Of a stretch of DNA of 64,000 bases, positions 28,971 to 58,700 are shown one piece after another. Each line of letters starts with the position of its first letter. Positions within the stretch are counted from its first letter, which is position 1. Location: contig CBDAOB010000003.1 of the NCBI GenBank assembly GCA_965197905.1, positions 1,120,001 through 1,184,000 on the forward strand, written 5' to 3'. The notes beneath the pieces are model-generated. The model had not been told where the DNA came from. It did not search any database and was given only the letters and a program-made list of their open reading frames with translations. This DNA is from Candidatus Latescibacterota bacterium. Lineage in GTDB: Bacteria > Latescibacterota > UBA2968 > UBA8231. The translations under genes were made by a program, and so were the position numbers.

Positions 28971-29095
28971 CGCAGCCGGGCGCGCAGCGATTGATCTCCG
29001 CGCATCGATTCCCCATACCTTCGAACAGCCGTAAACAGTTTGCCCAGTTACCCTTAACGCGCCAGCTGGGGTGGCTTCGGGAGCATGCCACCACC

Positions 29096-29149
29096 TTGAC
29101 AGGCATGGGGAGGTATGGCTAATATGAAGGCGGCGTTCCCCCCCCCCCC
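29096..29149 (+). promoter_or_regulatory. Putative BMC-operon promoter followed by a C12 homopolymer
   Basis: TTGACA(29096)-N18-TAATAT(29120); C12 at 29138-29149, 18 nt before the first ATG. Confidence 0.55.
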
Positions 29150-29167
29150 AATCTCACTCTACGGAAC

Positions 29168-29470
29168 ATGCTTCTCGCACAGGTCAAAGGCCACGTTGTA
29201 TCCAGTGCCAAGATCGACAGTTTGACGGGAAAAAAGCTGTTGCTCGTAGAGATCGTTACCGTGCGCGACGAGGGTTTGGAGCGCACCGAGCGCCACATGG
29301 TTTGCGTCGATGCGGTGGGAGCTGGAGAACGGGAACTGGTGCTGGTCGTCATGGGAAGCTCAGCTCGCGTCGCCCCCCATCTCGGCGACGTACCCACGGA
29401 TGCGGTCATCGTCGGCATCATCGATTCGCTCCAGGCGTTCGGTCGCGACATGGAGTTGGCGGACGCATGA
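29168..29470 (+). CDS. BMC vertex protein (BMC-P, EutN/CcmL family)
   Basis: MLLAQVKGHVVSSAK...DAVGAGERELVLVVMGSSAR...DAVIVGIID. Confidence 0.95.
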   Translation: MLLAQVKGHVVSSAKIDSLTGKKLLLVEIVTVRDEGLERTERHMVCVDAVGAGERELVLVVMGSSARVAPHLGDVPTDAVIVGIIDSLQAFGRDMELADA

Positions 29471-29721
29471 AGCGGTGCCGCGTGATTGGCAACGTGGTTT
29501 CCAGTTCTAAACATCCGGCGCTGGCTGGCAAGAAGCTTTTGTTGGTCAGACATCACGAAGAGACCGGCGATCCTGACCCCGGGATTGGCCTCGCCGTGGA
29601 TGGTGCTGGTGCCGGGATCGGCGATGATGTGATCGTCAGCGAATCCGGCGAAGCGGGCCGCGCCGTTACGCGTATCGAATATCCTCCCCTGCGCAGTGTA
29701 ATCGTCGGCATTGTGGACTGA
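29467..29721 (+). CDS. BMC vertex protein (BMC-P, EutN/CcmL family)
   Basis: MKRCRVIGNVVSSSKHPALAGKKLL...AVDGAGAGIGD...SVIVGIVD; ATGA overlap. Confidence 0.93.
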   Translation: MKRCRVIGNVVSSSKHPALAGKKLLLVRHHEETGDPDPGIGLAVDGAGAGIGDDVIVSESGEAGRAVTRIEYPPLRSVIVGIVD

Positions 29722-29724
29722 TCA

Positions 29725-30009
29725 ATGAAGCTTAATAGGGTCATTGGCACGGTGGTCCTGTCACGGTGCATCGAGCCGTTCAAGGGCAGGACCCTACACG
29801 TGACGCAGGATCTGAACGAGAGGCTCGAGCTGGTGGGCGATGCGGATGTCAGCATGGCCTGGGAACCGGTTCGCGAAGGGGAACTGGCCATTGTCGAGAT
29901 CGCGCGGGAAAGCGCCAATGCGTTCGATCCCCCCGTGCCCACCGACTCCGTTATTCTCGGCAGGGTCGACCGGGTTCACATCGATGAGAGATATAGCGGA
30001 GGTAAGTAG
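29725..30009 (+). CDS. BMC vertex protein (BMC-P), divergent
   Basis: MKLNRVIGTVVLSR...PVPTDSVILGRVD. Confidence 0.85.
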   Translation: MKLNRVIGTVVLSRCIEPFKGRTLHVTQDLNERLELVGDADVSMAWEPVREGELAIVEIARESANAFDPPVPTDSVILGRVDRVHIDERYSGGK

Positions 30010-30567
30010 ATGGCAGACGCAATCGGAATGGTAGAAACGGTCGGGTTCGTTGGGGCGGTGGAAGCGGGTGACGCGATGAGCAAAGCGGCGCAAGTTACGT
30101 TGACCGGATGGGACAAGATTGGGGCGGGTCTGACGTCGGTGTTCTGCGAAGGTGACGTGGCGGCGGTCAAATCGGCGGTCGATGCGGGGGCGCAGGCGGC
30201 GGCAAAGGTGGGAACGGTGCACAGCGCTCACGTGATTCCGCGGCCGCACTCCGAGTTGGAGTCGGTCTTGCCTTCAGCGTCCAAGGGAAACGGGGTGGTG
30301 GTTCAGGCGCTGGGGCTGGTGGAGACGCGGGGCTCGACCGGCGTGATCGAGGCGGCGGACGCCATGAGCAAAGCGGCAGATGTAGAGGTGGTGAAGATCG
30401 CCGAGATTGGCGGCGGTTATATCACGGTGTTGGTGACCGGGGATGTGGGATCGGTAAAATCGGCGGTGAGTGCTGGATCGGAAGCAGCGGAACGTGTCGG
30501 CGAGCTGGTCTCTCAACACGTTATCCCGCGCCCGTCGGACGAGGTCGCCTCGTTGTATCTAAGTTGA
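30010..30567 (+). CDS. BMC shell protein with two canonical BMC domains (tandem, BMC-T-like)
   Basis: Two copies of A(I/L)G(M/L)VET.G...DAMSKAA...GDV.AVKSAV...HVIPRP. Confidence 0.95.
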   Translation: MADAIGMVETVGFVGAVEAGDAMSKAAQVTLTGWDKIGAGLTSVFCEGDVAAVKSAVDAGAQAAAKVGTVHSAHVIPRPHSELESVLPSASKGNGVVVQALGLVETRGSTGVIEAADAMSKAADVEVVKIAEIGGGYITVLVTGDVGSVKSAVSAGSEAAERVGELVSQHVIPRPSDEVASLYLS

Positions 30568-30581
30568 AAGGGAAGGATTAG

Positions 30582-30845
30582 ATGAAGGCACTAGGTATGG
30601 TGGAGACCAAGGGTCTTGCGTGTATGGTAGAGGCGCTGGATGCGATGTTGAAGACCGCTGATGTCAAATACGTAGCTCAAAAACGAGTAGGAGCGGGTCT
30701 TGTGATGGTGATGGTGGAAGGCGATGTGGCGGCGGTGAAGGCAGCCGTGGATGCGGGCGCGCAAGCGGCGCAGCGAATCGGCGAACTGCGTAGCGTGCAC
30801 GTCATTCCACGGCCGATCGAAGGACTCCGGGCGCAGCTGAATTGA
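30582..30845 (+). CDS. BMC-H hexameric shell protein (PduA/EutM-like)
   Basis: ALGMVETKG...DAMLKTA...[10 protein letters not shown]...HVIPRP. Confidence 0.96.
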
Positions 30846-30874
30846 TGTGCACGCCCTGCTGAGAGTGCACTAGC

Positions 30875-32302
30875 GTGACCCAGAAGGTGAACGAAGACCA
30901 GGTCAGGGAGATCGTCGCCGAGGTCGTCAGCCGGGTGCTTGCGGCGCACAGCACTGAACCTGACTCGGGGTTATCGTCCCAGGTGGGCGGCGTTTTCGGG
31001 GACGCGGATGCGGCAGTGGCTGCTGCCCGCCGGGCTCAGGGGCAGTTGCTGTCGATGACGCTGGTAGACCGGAAGCGGATCATCGAAGCCATTCGCGATA
31101 CTCTGCACTCAGAGGCGGAGAGTTTCGCTCGGCGCACCCTCGAAGAGACCGGCATGGGCCGGCTCGAGGACAAGATCCGCAAACACCATGTGGCCGCAGA
31201 TACGACGCCCGGGGTCGAAGACCTGCATGCTGTTTCGTGGACCGGGGATCACGGCCTCACGGTGGTGGAGATGGCGCCGTATGGCGTAATCGCGGCGATA
31301 ACGCCATCCACCCATCCGGTGCCCACCATGGCAAGCAATGCCATCGGCATTGTCGCGGCGGGCAACGCGGCGGTTTTCAATGCTCACCCTGCCGCCAAAA
31401 AGATCTCCGCTGCCGCAGTCCAACAGCTAAACACCGCCATCGTAGAAGCGGGCGGCCCTGCCAACCTGATTACCATCATCGAACATCCAACCGTCGAGAG
31501 TGCTACTGAACTGTTCAACCACGCCGGCGTCGACGTCATACTGGTAACCGGCGGTCCCGCCGTCGCTCGAGCGGCCATGAGCTGTCCCAAGAAGGCGATC
31601 GTAGCGGGGCCCGGCAACCCACCTGTTGTCGTCGACGAAACGGCAGACCTGGAACGGGCGGCCCGGGACATCGTCGACGGCGCATCCTTCGACAACAATC
31701 TGCTCTGCATCGGCGAGAAGCAGGTGTTCGTCGTGGATTCGGTGGCTGACAGCCTGAAATCGCTCATGGTGCGGTACAGCGCTTACGAGCTCAACCCGGA
31801 GCAGATCGAACAACTCGTGCGGGAGGCGTTCGTCAGCGAGGGGAGCGGCGAACCCCGCGTGAATCGCGAGCTGGTGGGGCGCGACGCCGCGGTGCTGGGT
31901 GCCCGCATCGGTTTGCAGCTGGAAGACTCGCTGCGACTATTGATCGGCGAAACCGATGCCGGCCACATCTTCGTGCGGGAAGAGCAGATGATGCCGTTCG
32001 TGCCGATCGTCCGGGTGCCCAACGTAGATCAGGGGATTCGCGCCGCGGTCGAATCGGAGCATGGCTACCGACACACGGCGGTCATTCACTCGCGCAACAT
32101 CGAGAACATGCACAACATGGCCCGCGCCGCGGATACGACGGTGTTCGTCAAGAACGGCCCTTCTTACGCGGGATTGGGCATCGGTGGCGAAGGGTTCGGC
32201 ACCTACTCCATCGCCGGTCCCACCGGAGAAGGGCTGACGTCGGCGAGCACCTTTACGCGCCAACGACGCTGCAGCCTCGTAGACTATTTCCGCATCACCT
32301 GA
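30875..32302 (+). CDS. CoA-acylating aldehyde dehydrogenase (EutE/PduP-like) with an N-terminal encapsulation peptide
   Basis: EETGMG, TPGVEDL, VTGG, AGPGNPP, SFDNNLLCIGEK, EQMMP, TGEG; N-terminal EDQVREIVAEVVSRVL helix. Confidence 0.95.
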   Translation: MTQKVNEDQVREIVAEVVSRVLAAHSTEPDSGLSSQVGGVFGDADAAVAAARRAQGQLLSMTLVDRKRIIEAIRDTLHSEAESFARRTLEETGMGRLEDKIRKHHVAADTTPGVEDLHAVSWTGDHGLTVVEMAPYGVIAAITPSTHPVPTMASNAIGIVAAGNAAVFNAHPAAKKISAAAVQQLNTAIVEAGGPANLITIIEHPTVESATELFNHAGVDVILVTGGPAVARAAMSCPKKAIVAGPGNPPVVVDETADLERAARDIVDGASFDNNLLCIGEKQVFVVDSVADSLKSLMVRYSAYELNPEQIEQLVREAFVSEGSGEPRVNRELVGRDAAVLGARIGLQLEDSLRLLIGETDAGHIFVREEQMMPFVPIVRVPNVDQGIRAAVESEHGYRHTAVIHSRNIENMHNMARAADTTVFVKNGPSYAGLGIGGEGFGTYSIAGPTGEGLTSASTFTRQRRCSLVDYFRIT

Positions 32303-32310
32303 ACGGTCCC

Positions 32311-33021
32311 ATGTCCCAATCGAACCGGCAACCGCTCTCCGTGGATCGCGGCACCATTGAAACCATGGTTCGCGAGATCCTGGGGCGCTACTCGCCCGCC
32401 GAGGGTATGGACAAATCTGTAGCCGCCAGGATTCCGCGCCTGGTGGCGAACATCTCGGCTCGCCATCTCCACCTGAACCGCCAAACACTCGAAACCCTGT
32501 TCGGCTCAGGTGCTGAGCTGACGGTGCAGAAAGAGCTATACCAGGAAGGTGCGTTCGCCGCGGAACAGATGGTCACCGTATTCGGACCGCGGCAGCAGAT
32601 GATCGCCAACGTTCGCGTTCTGGGTCCGCTGCGCGATTACAACCAGGTGGAGCTTTCCTTCAGTGATGCGCGTTTCCTGGGCATCGATGCACCCGTTCGC
32701 CTGAGTGGCGATCACACCGACACCCCCGGGTGTTACCTGGTAGGTCCCGCCGGCGGTCTCGAACTGAAAGCGGGAGTGATACGGGCGGCCAGGCACGTCC
32801 ACATGAGTTCCGACGAAGGCGATTTCTACGGGGTAAAGGCGGGCGACCTGATGCGGCTCGTGGTAGACAGCGAACAAGGGGGAACACTGAGCGGACTGAT
32901 CTGCCGGGTCAGTGACCGCGAGAAGCTCGAGGTGCATCTGGACACCGACGAAGGCAACGCCGTCGATCTGGCGCGGGCCCGCAAGGTTCACCTGGAGAAA
33001 GAAACCGCTGATTCCACATGA
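32311..33021 (+). CDS. pduL: PduL-type phosphotransacylase with an N-terminal encapsulation peptide
   Basis: SARHLHL, RVLGPLR, RLSGD, ARHVHM, HLDTDEGNA; N-terminal DRGTIETMVREIL. Confidence 0.95.
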   Translation: MSQSNRQPLSVDRGTIETMVREILGRYSPAEGMDKSVAARIPRLVANISARHLHLNRQTLETLFGSGAELTVQKELYQEGAFAAEQMVTVFGPRQQMIANVRVLGPLRDYNQVELSFSDARFLGIDAPVRLSGDHTDTPGCYLVGPAGGLELKAGVIRAARHVHMSSDEGDFYGVKAGDLMRLVVDSEQGGTLSGLICRVSDREKLEVHLDTDEGNAVDLARARKVHLEKETADST

Positions 33022-33500
33022 GCTCCGTACTCCACATACAGGAGATGGTTGTCACCGGGGACGATCTTGCCCGGGCGCACCAGGGCCAGGAAGTGCTGTG
33101 TGTCGTTGCCGCGGCGGTGCTTACGCCGACGGCCTGGGATTACATTCGCGACCAGCGTTTGCGGCTGACTCGAGGGGAAAGCGCGTCCGTGTCCGAGTCT
33201 GTGGCACCGTCGGCGTCGACCAACCTGGTCAACGAGGCGCAGATGGTGCCCCATGCGCAGTGCGACCAACCGGGAAGTTCCTGCGGATGCACAACCGAGG
33301 AGTTTGGCTCCGGTTTTGTTCAACCCGAAAGTTGTGGGGTGTGTGCCATACATCAGCTCAAGGTCGCCGGCCAGGCGAACCCCGGATGCGAGGGCTGTAA
33401 TCTGAACGGGCGCTGCGACGGCGAATCAGGGTCCGCCGCCGCGACGGAGTCACTCGTGGCACAGATCACCGAGCAGATTGTGGAGCAGCTACGCCGATGA
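33018..33500 (+). CDS. BMC-associated Cys-rich hypothetical protein with a C-terminal encapsulation-peptide-like helix
   Basis: VTGDDL...AVLTPTAWDYIR module; 8 Cys in a ~53-aa stretch; C-terminal ESLVAQITEQIVEQL; 4-nt overlaps at both ends. Confidence 0.75.
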   Translation: MSSVLHIQEMVVTGDDLARAHQGQEVLCVVAAAVLTPTAWDYIRDQRLRLTRGESASVSESVAPSASTNLVNEAQMVPHAQCDQPGSSCGCTTEEFGSGFVQPESCGVCAIHQLKVAGQANPGCEGCNLNGRCDGESGSAAATESLVAQITEQIVEQLRR

Positions 33501-34060
33501 GCGGCGCGCTAGGTATCATCGAGGCAGAGGGGGTCGCCGGCATCATCGCCGCCTCGGACGTTGTCGGCAAAACCGCCGACGTCGAGCTGCTTGGCTGGGA
33601 GTCGATCGGCGGAATCACCTCCATCTTTTTCCGCGGGACCGTCGCGGAGGTGGCCGCCTCACTTGAAAGCGGCCGCGAGGCCGCCGCGGCGCTCGCGGAC
33701 AAGGTTGTGGCGGCCCCGTTGTATCAGCCCGAAGCGGTCTGCAGCGATTTCATTGGGCATCCGATGCCGGACGAGATCGAGGTTCCGGATGGCGCACTGG
33801 GCTTGCTCGAGTCTCGCGGCTACGGTGCTCACGTGCTGGCTAACGACCGCATGGTGAAGGCGGCTCCGGTCCGGGTCTACAATCTTCTGGCAGTGCACGA
33901 TCGCGTCGTTTGCACCCTGATCAACGGCGAGGAGGGTGCGGTTCGAGAGGCGATTGCCAGCGGCCGCGAACTGTTCGCTCGCGACGTGCGCTTCCGCTGT
34001 TCCACCGTTATCTCGCGCCCGTTACCGCACGTGCTGCGGGCGTTCGCGCCGGGCTGTTAG
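33497..34060 (+). CDS. Divergent two-domain BMC shell protein
   Basis: ALGIIEAEG...DVVGKTA and ALGLLESRG...DRMVKAA...VISRP. Confidence 0.88.
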   Translation: MSGALGIIEAEGVAGIIAASDVVGKTADVELLGWESIGGITSIFFRGTVAEVAASLESGREAAAALADKVVAAPLYQPEAVCSDFIGHPMPDEIEVPDGALGLLESRGYGAHVLANDRMVKAAPVRVYNLLAVHDRVVCTLINGEEGAVREAIASGRELFARDVRFRCSTVISRPLPHVLRAFAPGC

Positions 34061-34235
34061 TGCCCTGTATCGATAATATGCCTGTATTAATTCGCCGACT
34101 CATCCCGACCTGCTTCGTTACGCTCACTCGGCGTATTTCACCAATACGCCTCGATCGCGCGCCTTGCAGGACGGGCGACTCGGCGCCTTCATTGCACAGG
34201 CCTACTTCCGATACAGGGCACTGAGGAGGCTGCAG

Positions 34236-35393
34236 GTGGCGCAACCAAGCGCATTCGGGGTGTTGGAGACCCGAGGAGTAACGGCTCAAGTGGCTGCGAC
34301 CGACGCCATGGTCAAAACTGCTGATGTTCGGGTGTGCGGACGCCAGGCGATCGGCTCGGGATGGGTAACGGTGGTAGTGGAGGGTGAGGTCGGGGCCGTG
34401 CAAGCCGCGGTGGCAAGCGGCGAGCGCGAAGCCGGCAAGTACGGCGAGCTGATCGGCGCGGACGTCCTGACCGCGCCGGACATGGCGGCCGCCGACATCA
34501 TGCCACATGCCAGTGGGCTGAGCCCTGCTACCCTCAAACCCCAGCAAGCTCTCGGCGTCCTCGAGACTCGGGGTTTTGCCCAGCTGGTCGTTGGGGGTGA
34601 CGCCGCGACCAAGGCGGCGGCGGTAAGTGTCTGCGGCTGGGCTTCTGCCGGCGGTGCACTGTGCCATCTGGTGGTTCAGGGCGAAGTGGCCAGCGTGTAC
34701 ACTGCCCTGCGCGAAGGTCGCATCGCAGCCGAGACCGCCGGCGAGGTGTATGCGGCCCTGGTTATTCCACAGCCAGCGGTGGACGTGGCCGGCGTGTTGC
34801 CCGTGCCCGCAGGCGCTCAGCCAGCAGAGGTCGGTGCCCTCGGAATACTGGAGACCACCGGATATACCGGTTCGGTGGCGGCTGCGGACGCGATGGCCAA
34901 AACGGCTGAGATCGGAGTGGCGCGTTTCAATATTGGAAGTGGTGGACGCACCGCTGTTATGACCACGGGAAAACTGGACGATGTCCAGGCCGGCATCGAG
35001 CCCGGTGTTGCCGCGGCCAAACTGGCTGGTGGATTCGAGAACGCCCGTGTCGTCACCCGGCCCGACCCGGATATCGTGGCCTGTTTCGCGCAGGCAACAA
35101 CCAGTGCCGCACCGAAGGGGCTGGCCCTCGGATTAATCGAAACCCGCAGCACCGTGGCTCTGGTGAAGGCGATGGACGAGATGCTCAAAGGGGCCGACGT
35201 GGAGTACGAAGGCCGGGTGAAGGTGGGGTTCTATCTCACCGCCGGTGCGATTCGCGGTGACGTGGGCGCCGTCAGAGTGGCATTGGATCTGGGTGCGAAA
35301 GAGGCTCGTCGCCATGGGGAACTGGTCGCAACGCACTTGATACCGCAACCCGACCGGGGTATGGAGCCACCGCTACCACATCGAGGAACGTAA
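34236..35393 (+). CDS. BMC shell protein with four tandem BMC domains
   Basis: Four A(F/L)G(V/I/L)(L/I)ET units, each with DxxxK (DAMVK, DAATK, DAMAK, DEMLK); GTG start at 34236 after GAGGAGG. Confidence 0.9.
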   Translation: MAQPSAFGVLETRGVTAQVAATDAMVKTADVRVCGRQAIGSGWVTVVVEGEVGAVQAAVASGEREAGKYGELIGADVLTAPDMAAADIMPHASGLSPATLKPQQALGVLETRGFAQLVVGGDAATKAAAVSVCGWASAGGALCHLVVQGEVASVYTALREGRIAAETAGEVYAALVIPQPAVDVAGVLPVPAGAQPAEVGALGILETTGYTGSVAAADAMAKTAEIGVARFNIGSGGRTAVMTTGKLDDVQAGIEPGVAAAKLAGGFENARVVTRPDPDIVACFAQATTSAAPKGLALGLIETRSTVALVKAMDEMLKGADVEYEGRVKVGFYLTAGAIRGDVGAVRVALDLGAKEARRHGELVATHLIPQPDRGMEPPLPHRGT

Positions 35394-35413
35394 TCACCAG
35401 GAAGAGAACAAAC

Positions 35414-36574
35414 ATGGTACGCATCGCAGCTAGAGTGATCACGGGTCCGATGCTGGAGGAACAGCTCGCTGGCTCCGGCTCTGTGCAGATCGACAGGGGA
35501 GCGGTACTGACGCCCTCGGCGTTGGACTACCTAAAGGCTCACGAGGTCTCGGTGGTGCGCGACGGAGATGTGCCGCCTGCTGCCGCGAAGGGGGAGAAGC
35601 AAAACAGCCCCGTCGCGGGAGCGAAGCGGTTTCAAGGAATTTTTGTGCCCAACGTCGTCATCTTCGACGCTGACGGAAACATCAACTTCGGCGAAATGGA
35701 GCGTTACATCGCCTGGTTGATCGACGCTGGCATTCACGGACTCTACCCCAACGGAAGCACCGGCGAATTCGTGCGGCTTTCCGCCGAGGAGCGGCGGGAG
35801 GTGGTGCGCATCATCGCAAATGTAAACCAGGGGCGAGTTCCGATTCTGGCCGGTGCCAGCGAAGCGAATGTGCGCGACGTGCTGGATACGGCGGAGTATT
35901 ACGCGCGTTTGGATGTGGATGCCATCTCCCTGGTGCCTCCGTACTACTACAAGATCTCCGAACGCAGCCTGTTCGAGTATTTCGCCGAGATCGCCCGCAA
36001 CTCGCCCCTCGATATCTTGCTCTACAACATTCCCCAGTTCACCCAGGAGCTCACCCTGGATATCATGGAGGAGCTGCTCCCGTTCGAGCGCATCTTCGGC
36101 ACCAAGGACTCGAGCCGAGACCTGCCACGGATCGTAAATACAATCCACCGGTTGCGCCCCCAGCGTCCCGACTACGTGGTGCTCAACGGCTGTGAGGAGA
36201 TCCTGCTGCCTGCTATCATCATGGGCGCAGACGGCGGCACCATCGCCACCGCTGGCATCATACCCGAGGTAATCGCCGAGTTGTACCGGTGCTCTCTCGA
36301 GGGAGAAATCGAGCGCGCCCGCATGCTGCAGTATCGCATCATCGACCTCATAAACCTGATGCTGTTGGGTGCCAGTTTCCCCCAGGGGTTCAAGACAGGT
36401 GTGGCGGTGCGCGGGTTTGACGTAGGTCCACCCCGCCAGGTCATGAGCACCCAGGAGCGCGAAGTCCTGTCGCAACTGGAGGCGCAGATTACCTGTCTGC
36501 TGGACGACATGGGATACGAGGTGGACGGAGCAAGCAGCTGCCCCGTGACCAATACACCCCCCATTGTCAACTAG
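35414..36574 (+). CDS. DHDPS/NAL-family aldolase/lyase with an N-terminal BMC-associated module; candidate BMC signature enzyme
   Basis: NGSTGE, PPYYY, LLYNIP, Schiff-base Lys in TKDSS; ~70-aa N-terminal extension (AVLTPSALDYLK). Confidence 0.88.
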   Translation: MVRIAARVITGPMLEEQLAGSGSVQIDRGAVLTPSALDYLKAHEVSVVRDGDVPPAAAKGEKQNSPVAGAKRFQGIFVPNVVIFDADGNINFGEMERYIAWLIDAGIHGLYPNGSTGEFVRLSAEERREVVRIIANVNQGRVPILAGASEANVRDVLDTAEYYARLDVDAISLVPPYYYKISERSLFEYFAEIARNSPLDILLYNIPQFTQELTLDIMEELLPFERIFGTKDSSRDLPRIVNTIHRLRPQRPDYVVLNGCEEILLPAIIMGADGGTIATAGIIPEVIAELYRCSLEGEIERARMLQYRIIDLINLMLLGASFPQGFKTGVAVRGFDVGPPRQVMSTQEREVLSQLEAQITCLLDDMGYEVDGASSCPVTNTPPIVN

Positions 36575-36580
36575 AGGACC

Positions 36581-37675
36581 GTGACGGGGCTCCGCAGCGG
36601 ACCGAAGGTCGCGGTCATTGGCGCCGGAGTCATCGGCCGTTTCATAGCCTACCAGCTTACCGCACGGGGAATCCCCGTCGACCTTCTCGACCCCGGTCCC
36701 GATCCCTCATCCACTACCGCCGCCTCTCTTGGGGTGTTGACCCACTTCAACGGGGGCGACGATCCATATTCGCTGCTCTACCGGGACAGCTACCACAGTT
36801 ATTGCGAGCTGGCGGTCCAACTGGAGCACCAGACGGGCATCGATATCGGCTGGCGCCCGCTGGGGGGAATCGATCTGATATTCGACGAGGACGATGAGGC
36901 CGCGGCTGCCGCAACAGTCGCGTTCAATCGCTCGCGACACTGCGTCGTCGAACAGCTGGACCGTGACCGCGTACACGAACTGGAACCGGCCATATCCGAG
37001 AAGGTCCAGGGAGGATTGTATTTCCCCGACGACCAGCGCGTCGACCCGGCGAAGCTGGCCGCCGCGCTTATCAAGGCCATCGAACAGCAGGGTGGGGTCG
37101 CCCACTTCGGGGTCCGGGTGCTCGGTTTCGGCGACGTGACACGGCAGGGAGTTTCCCTGCAGACGACTTCGAGCACATTCGAGGCTGATGTGGTAGTGCT
37201 GGCAGCAGGTTGCTGGACCGGCGAGCTCGGCCGCATGCTCGGCGCCCACATCCCCGTTCGACCGATCAGGGGGCAGCATTGCCGTTTTTCAGGGGCCGCC
37301 GTCGAGCACGTGGTGCGCTACGACGGTCGGCACCTCCTCGCCTCCGATGAGTTCACGGTCGTGGGGGCAACCGTGGAGGACGTCGGTTTCGACGTGGAGG
37401 TATCGGCGTTGGCGCGTCAGGAGCTGTCCACTTTCGTGGGGGCAACCGTCAAACCCCATATGAGTTTTCACCAGCAGCGCGCGGGGCTGCGGCCCAAACC
37501 CAAGGGGGGTCGTCCCCTGATCGGACCACTGGAGGAATACCCGCAGGTATTCGTCGCAACGGGTCACTATAAGAACGGAATTCAGCTGGGGCCGGGGACG
37601 GGGGAGGCGGTGGCACGATGGATCGTTGATGGGGACCCTGGCCGGCAGATGGGGCGGTTCAAGCCGGAAAGGTAG
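36581..37675 (+). CDS. FAD-dependent oxidoreductase, glycine oxidase/D-amino-acid oxidase family
   Basis: VIGAGVIG, LAAGCW, PIRGQ, GLRP, TGHYKNGI. Confidence 0.88.
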   Translation: MTGLRSGPKVAVIGAGVIGRFIAYQLTARGIPVDLLDPGPDPSSTTAASLGVLTHFNGGDDPYSLLYRDSYHSYCELAVQLEHQTGIDIGWRPLGGIDLIFDEDDEAAAAATVAFNRSRHCVVEQLDRDRVHELEPAISEKVQGGLYFPDDQRVDPAKLAAALIKAIEQQGGVAHFGVRVLGFGDVTRQGVSLQTTSSTFEADVVVLAAGCWTGELGRMLGAHIPVRPIRGQHCRFSGAAVEHVVRYDGRHLLASDEFTVVGATVEDVGFDVEVSALARQELSTFVGATVKPHMSFHQQRAGLRPKPKGGRPLIGPLEEYPQVFVATGHYKNGIQLGPGTGEAVARWIVDGDPGRQMGRFKPER

Positions 37676-37785
37676 CCAAACCGAATTCGACTTTGTATTA
37701 TTAAGCCGCAGATTGGATACCGACGGCACAGAATTCAAGGGGTTGAGCCATGCCCAGACACCGCCGCCATCGACAACGTCAGCCC

Positions 37786-37948
37786 ATGAAGATATACGTG
37801 ATCATTTTCATGGTGTGTGGCGGGACTGGCGCTTCTGATGCACCTCATATCCGACGTCTCTGACGATGTCAGTGAGTACGCCGACGAGCGGGTGAACGCC
37901 GCCATGCGCAAGGCGGTAGAATCGGAACTGAAGAAAGCGGTCAAGTAG
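37786..37948 (+). CDS. Possible small single-TM protein with an apparent frameshift
   Basis: MKIYVIIFMV then, in another frame, VAGLALLMHLISDVSDDVSEYADERVNAAMRKAVESELKKAVK; shift falls in a TG dinucleotide run near 37815. Confidence 0.35.
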
Positions 37949-37984
37949 CCGGACCAGCCCGGCACCAAGCTGCGTTGAATCCGA

Positions 37985-38287
37985 TCAGGCTTCCTTTCCG
38001 AGACGTTCCAGGTATTCTTCCCATTCCACTGGCAGCAGATAATCTTTCTGGCTGTTGCATTCCTTGCAGCATGTCACCACGTTAGACCGGGAGCTCTTGC
38101 CACCGCGCACCAGCGGCACCACGTGGTCCATGGTTAGCTCGGAAGGATGATAAGGGCGCTGGCAGTACTTGCACTGACCGCGGGCGAGTTGGTTTTTCCA
38201 CCATTGCGACCGGCGCAACTCTTTGGCCTTGTTTTTTTCCCGCTTCATCTCTTCCTCGGAAACGGGCGAGAAGAACTCTTCAGCCAT
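37985..38287 (-). CDS. Small stand-alone HNH endonuclease
   Basis: CKYC...TMDHVVPLVRGG...NVVTCCKECNSQK. Confidence 0.9.
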   Translation of the reverse strand: MAEEFFSPVSEEEMKREKNKAKELRRSQWWKNQLARGQCKYCQRPYHPSELTMDHVVPLVRGGKSSRSNVVTCCKECNSQKDYLLPVEWEEYLERLGKEA

Positions 38288-49777: not shown

Positions 49778-52700
49778 ATGTCCGTAACTGGTAGCTCGAA
49801 GATTCGCAACGCCAGCTTGCCCGCCCGGGTTGCTGTCGGAGCCGTTTCTCTCGCGCTTCTGTTGTGTGCTGTCTCACCACTGTCAGCACAGACTTGCCAG
49901 GTGAAAAGCGTCCAGAAGATCGCCGACAACACCGGCGGTTTTGGCGTTACCCTCACGAACAGTGACAATTTCGGGGTCTCCGTTGTCGCCATCGGCGATC
50001 TGGATAACGACGGCGTCGAAGACCTTGCCGTGGGGGCGCACAACGACGACACCGGTGGCGCCGGTCGGGGCGCACTGTATGTGCTGTTGATGAACAGCAA
50101 CGGCACGGTAAAGAGCCACCAGAAGATCGCCGACAACACCGGCGGCTTCGGCGTCACTCTCACCAACAGCGATTTCTTCGGTGTCTCGGTAGCTGCATTG
50201 GGGGACCTGGACGACGATGGGGTGAAGGACCTGGCTGTGGGTGCGTTCTTCGATGACACCGGCGGCACCGGTCGTGGCGCCGTCTACGTACTGTTCATGA
50301 ACACAAACGGCACGGTAAAGAGCCACCAGAAGATCGCCGACAACACCGGGGGATTCGGCGTGACACTCACAGACAGCGACGCTTTCGGGGCAGCTGTTGT
50401 GGGTCTCGGGGATCTGGACAACGACGGGGTAGAAGATCTGGCCATAGGAGCAAAAAGTGACGACACCGGAGGCACTGATCGCGGCGCGGTCTACGTTCTG
50501 TTCATGAACACCAATGGCACGGTCAAGAGCTCGCAGAAGATTGCCGACAATACTGGTGGGTTCGGGGTAACCCTTGCAGACAGTGACTTCTTCGGCGGCA
50601 GGCTGGCCGCCCTGGGCGATTTCGATGGGGACGGGATCGAAGACCTGGCGTCGGGCGCACAGAACGACGATACAGGTGGCACCGACCGCGGTGCGTTCTA
50701 TGTGCTGCTGTTGAACAGCGACGGTACGGTGAAGAGCCACCAGAAGATTGCTGACAATACAGGAGGTTTCAACGTTACGCTCACCGACAGTGACGTCTTC
50801 GGAGGATCTTCGGTAACGAACCTGGGCGACCTTGATGGAGACGGAGTGGCGGATCTCGCCGCCGGGGCAATGCTCGACGACACCGGCGGTACCGACAGGG
50901 GCGCGCTGTATCTGCTGTTGATGAACAGCAACAGCACCGTCAAGAGCAACTTCAAGATCGCCGACAATACCGGGGGCTTTGACTTCGCTCTGACGAATAC
51001 GGCTCGTTTCGGAATCGCGGCGGTGGGCTTGGGGGATCTCGACGGTGACGGTGTCGGAGACCTGGCGATAGGAGCCGACAAGGACGATACCGGCGGCACC
51101 GATCGCGGTGCTCTATGGGTGGTGTTCCTGACCAAGGTACCCACCATCACTGCCATCAGTCCGAAGACAGGCAAGGTAGGTGATTCGGTAACCATCACCG
51201 GCACCGAGTTCGATGCCACCGCAGCGAACAACAAAGTGTTCTTCGGGGCGACGAAAGCGACGGTGACGGCGGCGTCGCTTTCGTCGCTGACCGTCACCGT
51301 GCCGACGGGTGCGACATTCGGCCCCTTGCAGGTGATCGTGCACAACCGCACCGCAGAGTCGGACGATTTCTTTCAACCCACCTTCTCCGGCGAGTTCCCT
51401 ACCATAGACGCTTCGACTCTGGCGGCCAAGGTAGACTTTGCCACCGGCACCGATCCGGTCAGCGTCCACCTGGCTGATTTCGATGGCGACGGCAAGGTAG
51501 ACATGGCGGTGTCCAACTCGACAACCAACAACGTTTCAGTCTTTGAGAACACCAGCTCCGGTTCCATTACCTTCGCCGCCAAGGCCGATTTTGCCGCGGG
51601 CACGAGTCCTTGGGGTATGGACGTAGGCGACCTGGATGGAGACGGGCTTCTGGATATGGCCGCGCCCAACAACACGACCAACAACGTCTCGGTCTTTCGC
51701 AACACCAGCTCCGGATCCATATCGTTCGCGGCGAAGGTGGATTTCGCGTCGGGCACGGTTCCCAACGACCTCGCCTTCGCCGACTTCGACGGCGACGGAA
51801 AACTGGACATGGTGACAGCGAACAACACCGCTACCACCGCCTCCGTTTTCCGAAATACAAGCACCTCGGGTAGCATCACCGCTGCCTCCTTCAGCGCCAA
51901 AGTCGATTTCACGACGGGAACGACGCCATCTGCGGTCGAAGTGGCAGACATAGACGGAGATGGGGAAACGGATTTCGTGGTCACCAACTTTGCCACCGAC
52001 AACGTCTCCGTGTTCCGAAACACCAGCACAGCTGGGACGATCGATGCCGCTTCATTCGCTGCCAAGGTGGATTTTGCTTCGGGCACAGGTCCACGCTTCT
52101 TGGCCTTGGGGGACGTGGATGGCAATGGCAAACCAGAGATGGTGGTCGCCAACGAAACCGCAAACACCATCTCGATCTTTCGCAATACTGCAGTTTCCGG
52201 CATGATCACCGGGGGATCGTTTGCCGCCAAAGTCGACTACACCGTTCAAACCGACCCTTACAACATAGCTTTCGGAGACCTCGATGGAGACAACAAGCCC
52301 GATATTGCCGTTTCTCATCGAACCACCGCAGCCTTCTCCCTCTTTCGCAACAAGAGCGTTTCAGGAACCATCGACGCCAATTCGCTCGACACCAGAGTGG
52401 ATTTTACCACGGCCAACGACTTGAGGGGTGTAGCGATCGGCGACCTCGACGGAGATCAAAAACCCGATGTGGTGGTGACCGATTTTACCGCGAACAACCT
52501 GTCGGTATTTCGCAATCTGACTCCAACGACGCTGGCGCCGACGATCACGTCCGTTTCGCCGCTGCTCGGAAAGATCGGTGATACGATAACGATCACCGGC
52601 ACGAACTTCGACGCTACGACAACCAACAACACCGTCTACATCGGCGGCATCAAGGCGACAGTGGTTACCGCTTCGGCCACGACGTTGACAGTTACGATGC

Positions 52701-55700
52701 CGGCGGGTGCGACGGTCGGGCCAGTGCGGGTCACGGTAAAAGAGCGGACAGCGGTATCCAATAAGATCCTGGGAGCCACTTATTCGGGGGCCGATCAGAC
52801 GATCACAGCCGGCGTTTTGGCAGAAGCCGTCGACTTCACAGCGGGCACAGGACCAACCGGTGCCATTGCAGCCGACATAGACGGCAATGGCGTGACCGAC
52901 ATCGTGCTCTCCAACTTTACCTCCAACACGCTATCCGTGCATCGGAACACCAGCACCGCCGGCGCCATCAATGCAGGTTCGTTCGCCGCCAAGGTGGACG
53001 TCAACACCGGAACCACTCCAAGATGGCTGACTGTTCACGACTTCGACGGTGACGGTCTGCTCGACCTGGCGACTGCGGCCGGCGGTACGGACAATCTTGA
53101 GGTCTACCGCAACACCAGTATGGTTGCCTCCGTATCGTTTGCCGGGGCCGTCACCTTCGCTACCAACAATGACCCGAACGTGGTGGCGGCGAGCGACATA
53201 GACGGGGATGGAAAGCTCGATATCGGGGTCACGACCTGGAACGGTGGTGCGGGGACGACTGTTTCGCTGTACCGCAACGAGAGCTCCAATGGAGTGATCA
53301 ACTTCGCGGCAAAGTCCGACGTCACTACGGGCACGGGCCCCGAGCGTGTCGCTTTCGGGGACGTGGACGGCGACGGCAAGCATGACATGGCGGTTGCTAA
53401 CAGCGCCGGCAACAACGTCTCCGTTTATCGGAACACCAGTACCGCGGGCACGATCGACGGATCCACCTTTGCCGCGGCGGTGAACTTCGCTGTTGGTACA
53501 ACGCCTCAAGATGTACGACTCGCCGATGTGGACGGTGGTGGGGCTCTGGATCTGCTCGTTACCAATACGGCGTCCAATTCGTTTTCGGTTCTGAGAAATA
53601 CCGCTATTTCAGGTGTCATCAATGCTTCCTCCTTCGCCGCAAAGCAGGATTTCACGACCGGTACACTTCCCAGAGCGCTCGCGATCGGTGACCTGTCGGG
53701 TAACGGCAGGCCGGATCTCGTCACGTCCAACGGCACAGCGAATACGACCTCGTTGTTTCGCAACAACGGCTCTTCAGGCTCCGTCTCGTTCGCCGCAAAG
53801 GTGGACCTCACGACGGGGACCGGTCCGTATGGAAACGTCATCGCCGATTTCGATGGCGACGGGCGACCAGAGCTGGCGCATACGAACTTCACCGACAACG
53901 ACGTTTCGGTATTGCACAATATCGCCGACCCGCCGAGGATTACGTCCGGCAGTCCACAGACCGGGAAGGTGGGTGACGCCGTCGCCATCAACGGCGAAAA
54001 TTTCGATCCGACCTTCGGCAACAACACCGTCTACTTCGGCCCGACGAAAGCGACCGTTACTGCCGGATCGGCCACTTCACTGACGACATCGGTTCCGACG
54101 GGTGCCACCTTCGGACCGATCAGTGTTACTGCCAAACAACGGACCGCCATATCGGACAAACCCTTTCTGCCCACCTTCGGCGGCGAGTTCCCGACGATTG
54201 ATGCATCCACCTTCGCGGCAAAGCAGGACTTCACGGCGGGGACAGGTCCGCAGTATGTCGCCACGGGTGACCTGGACGGCGATGGAAAGACCGACATGGT
54301 TGTTGGGAACTTCACCGCAGCAACGGTATCGGTGTTCCGAAATACCAGCACTAGCGGCACCATCGACGGCTCCTCGTTTGCCGCGAAGGTTGACCTGACG
54401 GCTGACACGCAAACTCGCGGCGTAGCAGTAGGTGATCTGGACGGCGACGGCAAGCTCGACATCGCCGTGACCAACTCGGGGGCCAATTCGGTATCGTTGT
54501 TCCACAACATGAGCTCTGTTGGTTCGATCTCATTTGCGGCGAAGGTGGACTTCACCACCGGCGCCGCACCGTTCGCTGTTGAAATCAATGATCTGGACGG
54601 CGACGGAAAACCGGACCTGGCAGTAGCCAACAAGACCGCGAACACGGTTTCCGTTTTTCGCAACTTAAGTGTAAGCGGTACCATCGATGCTTCGTCGTTC
54701 GCGGCCAAGGTAGATTACACGCCTGGAACGGATCTCCGGTTGTTAGCTCTGGGGGATTTGGATGGCGATGGTGCACCGGACATGGCTGTTGCCAATCGAA
54801 CGTCGAATAATCTGTCAGTGTTCCGGAACACAGCTACAGCCGGTACGATTGACGCTTCTTCATTTGCCGCAAAGGTCGACTTCACGACCGGTACGAATCC
54901 GAACGGAGTCGCGATAGGCGATCTTGACGGCAATGGACAGCCGGAGCTGGTCGTTTCGAACGAAGCGAACAATCTATCTGTTTTTCGCAATACGGCCGTG
55001 TCCGGTGTCATCAACGCTGGCTCGTTTGCCGCAAAGATTGATTATACCACCGCCGTAGGGCCGAGCGGTCTGGCCATGGGTGATATCGACGGTGACGGCA
55101 AGCTGGACATCGCAACCGCCATAGGTGGTGGGGCCGACGTTGTATCGGTTTTTCGAAATACCAGTGTGACGGGAACGATCGACGCGAATTCACTTGCGCC
55201 CAAAGTCGATTTTGCTACTACCTCCGACGTGATCGGTCTGGCGATCGCAGACCTCGATGGCGACGAAAAGCCCGAAATTGCTGTGGTAAACAATACCGGA
55301 GCTGCGGTGTCGGTTTTTCATAATATCACGCCCACCGTACCGGCGCCGACTATCACCTCCTTTACACCCACGTCTGCGAAACCAGGTGAGTTGGTCACGA
55401 TCACCGGCACCAACTTCGACACGACACCTGGGAACAACACGGTGTTCTTCGATCCAATCAAAGCGACGGTGACCTCGGCTTCAGCGACGTCACTCACGGT
55501 CACGGTGCCGGACGGCGCGGGTTACGGTCCCTTGACCGTGACCCGCAAAGAACGCACGGCGATATCGGACGATTATTTTCTGCCTACCTACGGTGGTGTA
55601 GCTCAGACGATCGCGGACGGCACCCTGGCAAGTCAGATTACCTTCGCGACCGGCGTGAATCCAAATGGGACTGGAACGGCCGATATCGATGGCGACGGGC

Positions 55701-58700
55701 TGCCGGAGCTCGTAACGGTGAACTTCGGCGGCAACAGTATTTCCGTTTTCCTCAATACGGGTACTGCCGGGGGGTTCAACGGCAGCTCTTTCGCCGCCAA
55801 GTCCGACTTCACCGTGGGTACGGGACCGGGTTACGCCGCCATAGGTGACATCGACGGAGACGGTCTCCCCGATGTGGCGACATCGAATCTGTCGGCAAGC
55901 ACCGCGTCGGTGCTGCGGAACATGAGCACAACGGGATCGCTCGCCTTCGACGCCAAGGTCGATTTCACGACTGGCACGTCACCTTCCGGCGTCGCCCTGG
56001 GTGATATAGACGGCGATGGCAAGCCGGACCTGGCCACACCGAACTTCGGCACCACAACAGTTTCTGTATTCCGGAATACGAGCAAGAGTGGCGCGATCGA
56101 CGCAACATCATTCTCGCCGAAGGTGGATTTCACTGTTCTCACGCAACCGCACAATGTGGCTTTCGGTGATATCGATCAGGACGGTAAGCTCGATATGGTG
56201 GTGGTCAACCGTGGCTCCAACATGATCTCGGCTTTCCGCAATACGGCGACGGCTGGCGAAATCACTGCTTCCTCCTTCGCAGCAAAGGTGGATGTCGCCA
56301 CTGGAGCAACGCCGTTCACCGTAACACTCTCGGACTTCGACGGTGACGGCCTACTGGATGCGGCCGTTCCCAACAACGGGGCCGGCAATTTCTCGACGCT
56401 GCGCAACACCAGTATGACCGGTTCGATCTCCTTCGCCGCCGCCGTCGACTTCACGGCAGGGACGGGACCATACGGATCGGCCGCTGGCGATATCGACGGC
56501 GATGGGCTTCCAGACGTGGCTATTCCAAACAACACTTCCAATACTACCTCGGTCTTCGAGAATACGAGTGTCTCTGGAACCATAAGTTTCGCAACCAAGG
56601 TCGACCTGACGACAGCCACCGGGCCACAAGGTGCTGCCATCGCCGATTTCGATGGCGACGATCGGCCCGATATTGCCATCTCCAGCTCGTCGAACAACCT
56701 GTCGATCTTTCACAACATCGCCGATCCGCCGACGATCAGCTCGTTTACGCCCACGTCAGGGCACGTCACTAAGTCGATAACCGTAACCGGCGCCAACTTC
56801 GACACTACGCCGGCAAACAACATCCTCTTCTTCGGCGCCACCAAGGCGAATATAACGGCAGCAACTGCCACTTCGTTGACCGCAGATGCGCCACTGGGTG
56901 CCACGTTCTCGCCGCTGCACCTGGAAGTCAACGGGCGCACGGCGTTTTCAGACAAGCCGTACCTGCCAACCTACGCGGGCACGGCCACCATCGACGCGTC
57001 CTCATTCGTGGCGAAGGTAGACTTCGCCACCGGAACCACACCACAACCGTTGGTCGTTGGAGACATGGACGGTGACGGCAAGCCAGATCTGGTGATCTCC
57101 AACGATCCCGACATCGTGTCGGTACTGCGCAATACGAGCTCCACCGGCTCGATCACCGCAGGCTCGTTCGCGGCAAAAGTCGATTTCGCCACCTCTTCCA
57201 CCCCCGTCGGCCTAGATCTGGGAGATCTGGACGGGGACGGAAAATTGGACGTGGCTATCGCCAACAATCTCTCCACCTCCGTATCTCTGTTCAGAAACCT
57301 GAGCAGCTCGGGCAGTATTTCCTTGGCCGCCAAGGTCGATCACACGACGGGTACTCAACCGACGGACGTGGCGATTGACGACCTGGACGGCGACGGCAAA
57401 GCCGACCTGGCGATTTCGAATCTGTCAACCAACAACGCATCGGTACTTCGCAACATCAGCGTCGAAGGTACCATCGACGCCAATTCCTTCGCGGCCAAAC
57501 AGGACTATGCTACGGCTACCAGTCCCCAGGCGATCGCGGTGGCAGACATCGACGGCGACGGAAAGCCGGATCTTCTGGTACCCGGATTCGGCACGAACCA
57601 GCTTTCGGTGCTGCGCAATACCTCAACTGCCGGCACGGTCGATGCGTCCTCGTTTGCCGCCAAGGTCGACTTTGCTACGGCCTCGATTCCAACCGACGTG
57701 ATCACAGCCGATATCGATGGTGACACGAAACCTGATGTGATCGTACCTAACTTCAGTTCCACCTCGGTGTCGGTTTTCCGGAACAAGAGCATTAGCGGCA
57801 CGATCGACGGCACATCGCTTGCCGCCAAGGTGGATTACACCCTAGGCGCGAGTCCGATAGCGGCGACTGCGGGAGATATGGACGGCGACGGTAAGATTGA
57901 CCTGGCGGTTGCCAGCCAGGGATCTGATTTCGTTTCGGTGCTGCGCAACCAAGCTGTGAGTGGGACTATCAACGCCGCGTCACTGGCGACCCGTGTCGAT
58001 TACACCACCGGCGATCAGCCCTCTGGAACGGCCATGGGAGATCTGGACGGGGATGGGAGATCCGACCTGGTAGTCACCAACAAAAACGACAATAATCTCT
58101 CGATCTTTCGCAATAAGTCCACGCTCAAAACCACAGGCTTGGCCGGCACCTCAACCATGGCTCCAGGCGCCGAGGTGCAGCTGTTCCGCATAGGACTGGC
58201 CAGCTACGGCACCTACACCCTCAACAGCATCGCATTGGCCTTGTCGGATTTGTCCACGGCGACGGGGATTACTTCGGGCGACCTGGATGTGCGACTCTAC
58301 AAGAGTACCGATGAAACCTTCGACAGTGGCGACACCCACATCGGCACCCAGACCACGATCAATTTCGGCGGTACTACAACGATAACGCCGACGGCGACGG
58401 AGACGCCGCTCAATCATTCCTTTTACATTGTCACCGCCCGCATCAGCACCACCCCGATCGATAAACACGCTTTCAAGCTCGGATTTACCCTCGACGGAGT
58501 AACCACTTCCGTCGGCTCCGAAGGTTTGGCGATCACGGCAAGTGATGCCAACAACGTGACCATCGACGTGGTGGCGACGAAATGGATATTTGTTTCTATC
58601 CCCACCGGAGGAACTCACCTTCAGGAACTGACGCCGCAACCGGGAATGGAAGCTCACGATGCTGCCGGCAACGTGGATCGGGATATCAACGGCACCGTAA

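Follow-up and report, generated by a model that had tools for sequence, protein, structure and literature searches.

How a chain of four bacterial microcompartment (BMC) domains can be fitted into a shell whose tiles hold six is the question raised by a locus of Candidatus Latescibacterota bacterium (assembly GCA_965197905.1), analysed here in a window of 64,000 nucleotides (contig CBDAOB010000003.1, positions 1,120,001 to 1,184,000). In this locus, a gene encoding a protein with four different BMC domains (a1 to a4) follows a gene encoding a divergent protein with two (b1 and b2). The published catalogue of tile types (BMC-H, Hp, Ts, Tsp and Tdp; PMC8217296) comprises, in its accessible part, only six-fold or three-fold symmetric units. 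An earlier note on this DNA proposed that the two proteins form an asymmetric heterodimeric pseudohexamer or, alternatively, that three four-domain chains form a unit of 12 domains. Gene linkage, a natural control provided by a paralogue and one modelled complex together argue for the first proposal, and the 4+2 heterodimer probably makes up one closed asymmetric pseudohexamer.

An intact four-domain frame and its divergent neighbour

The profile PF00936 (curated cut-off 24.5 bits) matches the product of a single open frame in four stretches with a score of 229.7 bits and that of the gene upstream in two stretches with 100.4 bits, which bears out the domain counts of the earlier note. A GAGGAGG motif at 34223-34229 lies ahead of the GTG start of the four-domain gene. 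The four pore loops given in the earlier note (AIGSG, SAGGA, IGSGG and KVGFY) are present as described, and the edge DxxxK motif was found in every domain (D23/K27, D122/K126, D218/K222 and D314/K318), its Lys being kept in 100% of 70 orthologues.

Such a fusion could have been an artefact of assembly or gene calling, or a decayed gene. However, neither a stop nor a frameshift splits the frame: in sequencing run X1, one contig covers 34141-35441, linkers included, with 2 substitutions and zero gaps, and no indel was seen in the four-domain frame among the 4 runs compared. Because run X1 may be the source sample, conservation is the stronger evidence for an intact frame. Four domains were found in 119 of 120 homologues (the best 120 of 215, 45-97% identical to the four-domain protein), the remaining one having 269 residues and 3 domains. 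In the genomes of the phylum, 78 of the 83 four-domain matches extend over nearly the full length and contain no internal stop. Similarly, in a set of 76 GTDB loci, most of them with the label Latescibacterota or Gemmatimonadota (drawn from the best 80 of 93 matches), the gene is complete in 69, and contig ends interrupt six of the loci. Domain spacing is regular across orthologues (medians of 98, 96, 97 and 96; the minima of 62 and 36 are probably motif mis-hits, hence the medians alone were used). A single frameshifted locus among the 76 speaks for an artefact or for decay, a reading which the conservation data refute and which retains virtually no probability.

The two-domain product most probably belongs to the class named “Ts_hazel” in Sutter 2021, because CME28_01115 (Ts_hazel) and CME28_01110 (P0089, 54% identical to the four-domain protein) are adjacent locus tags.

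Genetic linkage of the pair

Co-occurrence of the two genes was counted in 168 genomes of the phylum. Matches to the two-domain gene came from 84 of them and matches to the four-domain gene from 83; 83 genomes hold both, 1 holds the two-domain gene only and 84 hold neither. The sole mismatch, G006, is a two-domain gene running off the end of a 2050-base contig, so the co-occurrence that the earlier note had proposed to look for is nearly perfect. Because this genome set overlaps with the 76 loci and its genomes are kin within one class, the count is the evidence of one lineage and not of 83 independent cases. In the complete loci, the two-domain gene lies immediately upstream in 69 out of 69, at a distance of about -1 to 28 nucleotides. 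An aldolase gene comes next after the pair in 70 of the 74 loci where this position is visible. In 13 loci, the fetched DNA contains no BMC gene beyond those of this trio (two-domain, four-domain and aldolase genes), and in genome G040 the trio and the core locus are on separate contigs.

The operon also encodes an ordinary two-domain BMC paralogue, whose distribution serves as a natural control. This paralogue was found in none of the 22 genomes of family f4 and none of the 31 of family f2, and the pair is present in 16 and 2 of these, respectively. Altogether, 18 genomes thus retain the pair with no ordinary paralogue found, which favours a specific partner.

Duplications were observed as well. 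The partner gene occurs twice in genome G001 (G001:C118 and G001:C304), each time followed by the four-domain gene or its start, in an assembly with 7% contamination. In loci L067, L069 and L083, the ordinary BMC-T and BMC-H pair is duplicated within the locus.

A closed ring in the modelled complex

AlphaFold2 predicts the four-domain chain as one rigid body, with a predicted local distance difference test (pLDDT) of 94.8 and a predicted template-modelling score (pTM) of 0.92. The modelled a1-a2 unit finds its best structural match in the synthetic tandem fusion 6NER (Z 27.1, root-mean-square deviation (rmsd) 1.7 Å over 178 residues) and does not superpose on PduT or Haliangium BMC-T1 (rmsd 14-17 Å). 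The b1-b2 model likewise resembles 6NER, with a template-modelling score (TM) of 0.84, as against a TM of 0.40-0.45 and an rmsd of 15-16 Å for the same solved natural trimers. All six domains are predicted to have the standard order of strands and helices with no circular permutation, their best matches being non-permuted BMC-H.

The complex was modelled as one 1:1 heterodimer, which reached a score of 0.87, while the best of 3 controls scored 0.00. The mark of 0.87 is attained by 116 of 157 solved pairs and 2 of 215 mismatched pairs. Runs of the model shared at least 95% of their contacts, with a pLDDT of at least 91 for the partner. The predicted contacts between the chains are solely a1-b2 and a4-b1 and involve complementary faces, the sheet face of a1 meeting the helix face of b2 and the helix face of a4 meeting the sheet face of b1. 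The best-defined contacts would be those of the invariant Tyr109 of b2 against residues 37, 39, 43 and 45 of a1, among which Trp43 is also invariant. Columns of the modelled interface are more conserved than the rest (0.79 versus 0.68 and 0.77 versus 0.69). Because a1-a2 and b1-b2 lie in the plane and a1 touches b2 as a4 touches b1, five consecutive positions of the ring would be fixed, suggesting a closed ring in the order a1-a2-a3-a4-b1-b2.

Two adjacent genes translated together could thus supply complementary arcs, with four domains in the plane spanning two thirds of the ring and two domains the remaining third. Joined 1:1, they would yield a pseudohexamer with no internal symmetry. Such a tile would probably be a minor part of a metabolosome that handles aldehydes and builds its facets chiefly from BMC-H.

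Six distinct positions around a proposed pore

In a quick tree, the sequences of the six domains fall into six separate groups, with 23-40% identity between positions and 59-70% within, and b1 and b2 are the most divergent of the six. Because this tree resolves the domain groups and not their order, we do not claim that they arose through duplication of a BMC-T. Pore-loop residues are mostly more than 90% conserved over 70-73 orthologues: G-S-G in a1, G-G-A in a2, S-G-G-R in a3 and K-V-G-Y-F/Y in a4, with a loop one residue short in b1 and H-N/D-R in b2. Since a4, b1 and b2 would be ring neighbours, bulk and charge are expected to gather on one side of the pore, and with six different domains held in a set order by the fusion, each pore position may evolve separately. 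The small Gly/Ser loops of a1 to a3 would then stand opposite the Lys/Tyr/Phe of a4, the short loop of b1 and the His/Asn-or-Asp/Arg of b2, forming a gate that is off-centre, in part cationic and suited to an anionic substrate. The genes, with their conservation, linkage and motifs, are observed, the folds and the closed ring are modelled, and the stoichiometry in cells, the incorporation into the shell and the function as a gate are inferred.

The edge Asp and Lys are conserved at 99-100% in all six domains, and the Lys at 100%. The Asn-Arg-Lys edge triad is one that we take to map onto the corresponding alignment columns of these domains. Its Arg is kept at 98-100% in both BMC-H and the ordinary tandem protein and at about 10% or less in a2, a4, b1 and b2, a loss which would fit a minor tile among BMC-H neighbours. 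The title of PDB entry 4P2S refers to an Asn-Arg-Lys triad.

Alternative architectures and functions

The four-domain arc could instead be closed by two BMC-H or by the ordinary paralogue, the divergent two-domain protein being a co-transcribed homotrimer. Both closing candidates are encoded in the same operon, the two-domain protein is classed as BMC-Ts in the accessible part of Sutter 2021, and BMC-H were described, in the part of the source that could be consulted, to cross-react between shells (10.1101/2024.03.19.585794). However, the pair is maintained in the 18 genomes where the paralogue was not found, the two-domain gene stands without the four-domain gene solely at a contig end, and the trio relocates to a satellite site as a unit. 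Moreover, the highly divergent b1 and b2 would present a short loop and His/Arg to the aromatic loop of a4, and we regard closure by another protein as improbable. The second proposal of the earlier note, in which three four-domain chains build a 12-domain double ring, or in a variant one chain bridges two tiles (2+2), has in its favour that 12 is a multiple of 4 as well as of 6 and that stacked trimers exist in BMC-Tdp (PMC8217296, accessible part). It found no support: the a2-a3 spacing, with a median of 96, does not exceed the spacings within the ring, all three linkers being equally short, the single chain is predicted to be one rigid body (pTM 0.92) whose only free faces are on domains 1 and 4, and, unlike in BMC-Tdp, the domains are not circularly permuted. 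An obligate partner would also be left unexplained, which makes this architecture very improbable. A further alternative bears on function and could hold together with the 4+2 architecture. The heterodimer may be mainly a docking or scaffold tile with a closed pore, anchoring the aldolase and a Cys-rich protein through an N-terminal domain that they share, or it may act outside the shell. Invariant bulky residues on one side of the pore, the loss of most edge Arg in a2, a4, b1 and b2, and an aldolase that travels with the pair and whose extra domain is absent from distant homologues (families f13 and f14) would agree with docking. The edge Asp and Lys, at 99-100% in all six domains, and the persistence of the pair without the aldolase argue against it, and a mainly docking role seems unlikely.

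Several observations count against the 4+2 heterodimer or its proposed role. Adjacent genes in kin genomes of one class co-occur for reasons besides binding, and locus L097, 1 of 76, is frameshifted between domains 3 and 4, i.e., split 3+1. No fusion of six domains was seen in the 76 loci or among the best 150 representatives. In the model, the placement of a3 at the sixth position is deduced and not read from the coordinates. The score of the complex may reflect the likeness of BMC domains to many solved hexamers, its controls being unrelated proteins and not the BMC-T or BMC-H of the operon, nor homo-oligomers. Inter-chain covariation placed 0 of the top 100 pairs on matching faces, versus 0.9 expected, in an alignment with a shallow effective depth of 22. 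As for the enzyme, the aldolase was not found in 8 of 84 pair genomes, three of which are in 1-2 contigs, and the single-contig genomes G004 and G020 lack both class I and class II aldolases by the queries used, which weakens a strict link between the tile and the aldolase.

A weak search with the partner for longer proteins gave 2 matches, both four-domain proteins, with no six-domain fusion. P0158 (569 residues) was considered as such a fusion and rejected, since it consists of two domains and a long tail.

The operon, its aldolase and a possible substrate

The surrounding genes are those of an aldehyde-handling metabolosome (Table 1), including an ordinary two-domain BMC (30010) and a BMC-H (30582) that the earlier note did not mention.

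Table 1. Features of the locus (window coordinates; all genes on the forward strand)
Feature	Coordinates	Strand	Remarks
Three BMC-P (EutN/CcmL) vertex genes	29168..30009	+	PF03319 in each
Ordinary two-domain BMC paralogue (t1-t2)	30010..30567	+	Edge Arg kept; unneeded beside the pair in families f4 and f2
BMC-H, likely main facet protein	30582..30845	+	PF00936, one stretch
Acylating aldehyde dehydrogenase, metabolosome type	30875..32302	+	NF011927, 645 bits (cut-off 403)
PduL-type phosphotransacylase	32311..33021	+	PF06130, E 3.7e-64
Cys-rich protein, conserved Cys	33018..33500	+	No Pfam match; N-terminal domain like that of the aldolase, E 1e-6
Divergent two-domain BMC protein (b1-b2), proposed partner	33497..34060	+	187 residues; PF00936, two stretches
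Repeat like a miniature inverted-repeat transposable element (MITE), between the two- and four-domain genes	34058..34222		165 nucleotides, terminal inverted repeats; 10 copies in the genome
Four-domain BMC protein (a1-a4)	34236..35393	+	385 residues; PF00936, four stretches, E 2.4e-69; GTG start, TAA stop
Domain a1, residues ~5-91	34248..34508	+	Pore loop (H/Q)xIGSGW; sheet face predicted to contact b2
Domain a2, residues ~104-189	34545..34802	+	Pore loop GGA
Domain a3, residues ~200-285	34833..35090	+	Pore loop SGGR; Arg238 invariant
Domain a4, residues ~297-382	35121..35381	+	Pore loop KVG(Y/F)(F/Y); helix face predicted to contact b1
DHDPS/NAL-family class I aldolase-like enzyme, candidate tile client	35414..36574	+	PF00701; extra N-terminal domain
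ThiO-like FAD oxidoreductase	36581..37675	+	Tightly linked in 57/76 loci

The Cys-rich protein and the aldolase have in common an N-terminal domain of about 50 residues with no Pfam match (35414-35590 in the aldolase). The C-terminal helix of the Cys-rich protein resembles an encapsulation peptide when judged by eye, and an atlas search with this protein gave only unnamed clusters below 0.9 and a weak EutQ lead. The best PDB match of the aldolase is YagE (2V8Z, E 2e-38). Its residues G114-S-T-G117, Y204 and K231, invariant in 16 sequences, provide the GxxG motif, the catalytic Tyr and the Schiff-base Lys that were described as class I features of the DHDPS/NAL family (PMC9795676, accessible part). 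None of the NCBIfam curated models reaches its cut-off with this enzyme. Whether the ThiO-like oxidoreductase belongs to the compartment is uncertain.

A peptide-bearing class II aldolase, as judged by the query used, is present in 118 of 132 genomes of the class. It was not found in the genome bearing the studied locus (G000, 91% complete), nor in G001, the single-contig G002, G004 and G020. No linked class II aldolase having been found in G000, the class I enzyme is the only aldehyde source in sight there. G004 and G020, where the queries used found neither aldolase, keep the 4+2 pair all the same. Close homologues of the aldolase that lack the N-terminal domain are found in G071-G076, in families without the pair.

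In the accessible part of its description, the non-phosphorylating fucose pathway converts keto-deoxy-fuconate into pyruvate and lactaldehyde (PMC11199699), and rhamnose-pathway-like genes occur in related loci, with scores below their cut-offs. A tentative guess, more doubtful than not, would be that the substrate of the compartment is a 2-keto-3-deoxy sugar acid which the aldolase cleaves into pyruvate and lactaldehyde or a similar aldehyde. Clustering of neighbouring genes into families, for which 27 loci were sampled, revealed an FAH-family gene (L078:5238-6059) in 14 of them, matched best by 2,4-didehydro-3-deoxy-L-rhamnonate hydrolase (220 bits, cut-off 500), and an unassigned gene encoding 313 residues after the oxidoreductase in 17 (L036:14130-15068). 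A rhamnose-mutarotase-like gene was also seen (L031:4997-5314).

The gap between the two- and four-domain genes is 175 nucleotides here, compared to about -1 to 28 in the family, and consists mostly of a repeated insertion, a point absent from the earlier note. Copies of at least 140 of the 165 nucleotides of this element number 10 in the genome, the studied one included; they are 75-100% alike and have TAG-like flanking ends. The insertion appears to be recent and strain-variable, because contigs from two other sequencing runs skip the element at this site, and the element is outside the conserved system. Rfam gave no match within 29000-38000, and no RNA data set was listed as containing the locus. 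Elsewhere in the window (49778-63208), an open frame of 4476 residues, rich in repeat motifs, encodes an apparently secreted or surface protein.

Implications of a proposed asymmetric tile

The three-fold or six-fold symmetry of the known tiles means that any change in the pore appears in three or six copies. If confirmed, a 4+2 heterodimer without symmetry would leave six pore positions and six edges free to differ, offering a natural test of substrate selection by asymmetric pores and a scaffold for shell engineering by changes at one site. It would also explain a protein that was called “very unusual” in 2021 and left aside, and would link one particular gate with a candidate enzyme; the metabolosome concerned is uncharacterised and occurs widely across a single uncultured class.

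A bolder and rather unlikely extension is that the trio is a portable plug-in for metabolosomes, in which a six-domain asymmetric, substrate-specific gate binds the aldolase of the trio by way of the N-terminal domain that this enzyme shares with the Cys-rich protein and adds an entry for non-phosphorylated sugar acids to a compartment like that of the PVM type (below). Apparently whole proteins with three BMC domains and 283-330 residues, unlike the 4+2 pair, were observed in 14 of the best 150 representatives (P0127, P0129, P0134-P0139, P0142, P0148, P0168, P0170, P0172 and P0176) and might form 3+3 tiles. If the plug-in proposal were true, tiles would, with these proteins, become partitions of six (6x1, 3x2, 2x3 and 4+2), versus the two known.

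Comparison with known systems

The four-domain protein is already on record. Supplementary file 4 of Sutter 2021 (PMC8217296) mentions, in one clause of the accessible passage, “very unusual quadruple linear fusions” in MUF2 loci, found in “several organisms” of 13 such loci. MUF2 is described there with the same proteins and locus type, i.e., an aldehyde dehydrogenase, a phosphotransacylase, a BMC-P triplet and a six-Cys protein, together with a pfam00701 aldolase sharing the six-Cys N-terminal domain and a satellite BMC-H with a tail. In the present loci, we found the main-locus aldehyde dehydrogenase and phosphotransacylase, the BMC-P triplet, the six-Cys N-terminal domain recurring in the pfam00701 aldolase and, at L021:9711-10184, a satellite BMC-H of 158 residues with a C-terminal extension. 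The pfam00596 aldolase with a C-terminal peptide beside a BMC-H was not found in G000, and a genome-wide tblastn for another MUF2 feature gave one gene, the BMC-H at 30582-30845. G000 is hence regarded as a MUF2-derived variant and not a full member, because these two features are missing. The accessible passage of Sutter 2021 treats the two proteins separately and contains neither their pairing nor a stoichiometry, a model or a function. As far as the literature search reaches, the 4+2 architecture is new: no 4+2 or heterodimeric tile was found, although subscription reviews and bioRxiv supplements outside its reach may hold one, and the accessible parts of PMC4207490 and PMC8155464 describe standard tile types only.

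With four and two PF00936 domains, the pair departs from the single domain per chain of BMC-H. The two non-permuted domains of BMC-Ts are found in the partner and not in the four-domain protein, and the geometry of the solved natural BMC-Ts trimers is not that of the partner, as far as a model and not a structure can tell. The circular permutation of BMC-Tdp and BMC-Tsp is absent. BMC-Ts homotrimers (PduT 3PAC/3N79, Haliangium BMC-T1 5DIH, 3NWG and, by family, CcmO) likewise consist of tandem non-permuted PF00936 domains, six per tile. Unlike them, the pair includes a four-domain chain, and the proposed tile has two different chains and no three-fold axis. The succession of domains round the ring would also differ, because the two-domain units do not superpose in the models. 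For CcmO, no chain was among the listed matches, and the CcmO model scores 214 versus a cut-off of 270. By sequence, no PDB chain with more than two matched stretches was present among the 60 best of 63. The synthetic BMC-H tandem fusion 6NER, which is engineered and has two domains per chain of 213 residues, would have the same domain order round the ring as a1-a2 and b1-b2. This fusion is reportedly a homotrimer of identical domains.

Among metabolosomes, the PVM type handles fucose and rhamnose by a class II aldolase and a lactaldehyde route, and the MUF2 aldehyde dehydrogenase is closest to that of PVM (PMC8217296, accessible part). The core locus of G040 (L098, G040:C4) is PVM-like, with PduL, BMC-H, three BMC-P, aldehyde dehydrogenase and a class II aldolase. 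An acetate-kinase-like frame, judged by eye, follows the class II aldolase of this family f4 locus. The G000 locus differs from PVM in encoding a class I DHDPS-like enzyme, no class II aldolase having been found linked to this locus, and a four-domain protein is not part of the PVM descriptions that could be consulted.

Mixed tiles have their nearest precedent in the CcmK3/CcmK4 heterohexamers of beta-carboxysomes, one member of which was reported to be unable to assemble alone (cited in PMC13370225 and 10.1101/2024.03.19.585794, accessible parts). As in the proposed tile, more than one gene product enters each tile; CcmK3/CcmK4 combine two kinds of single-domain subunit, whereas the 4+2 heterodimer would bring together six kinds of domain, fused in order.

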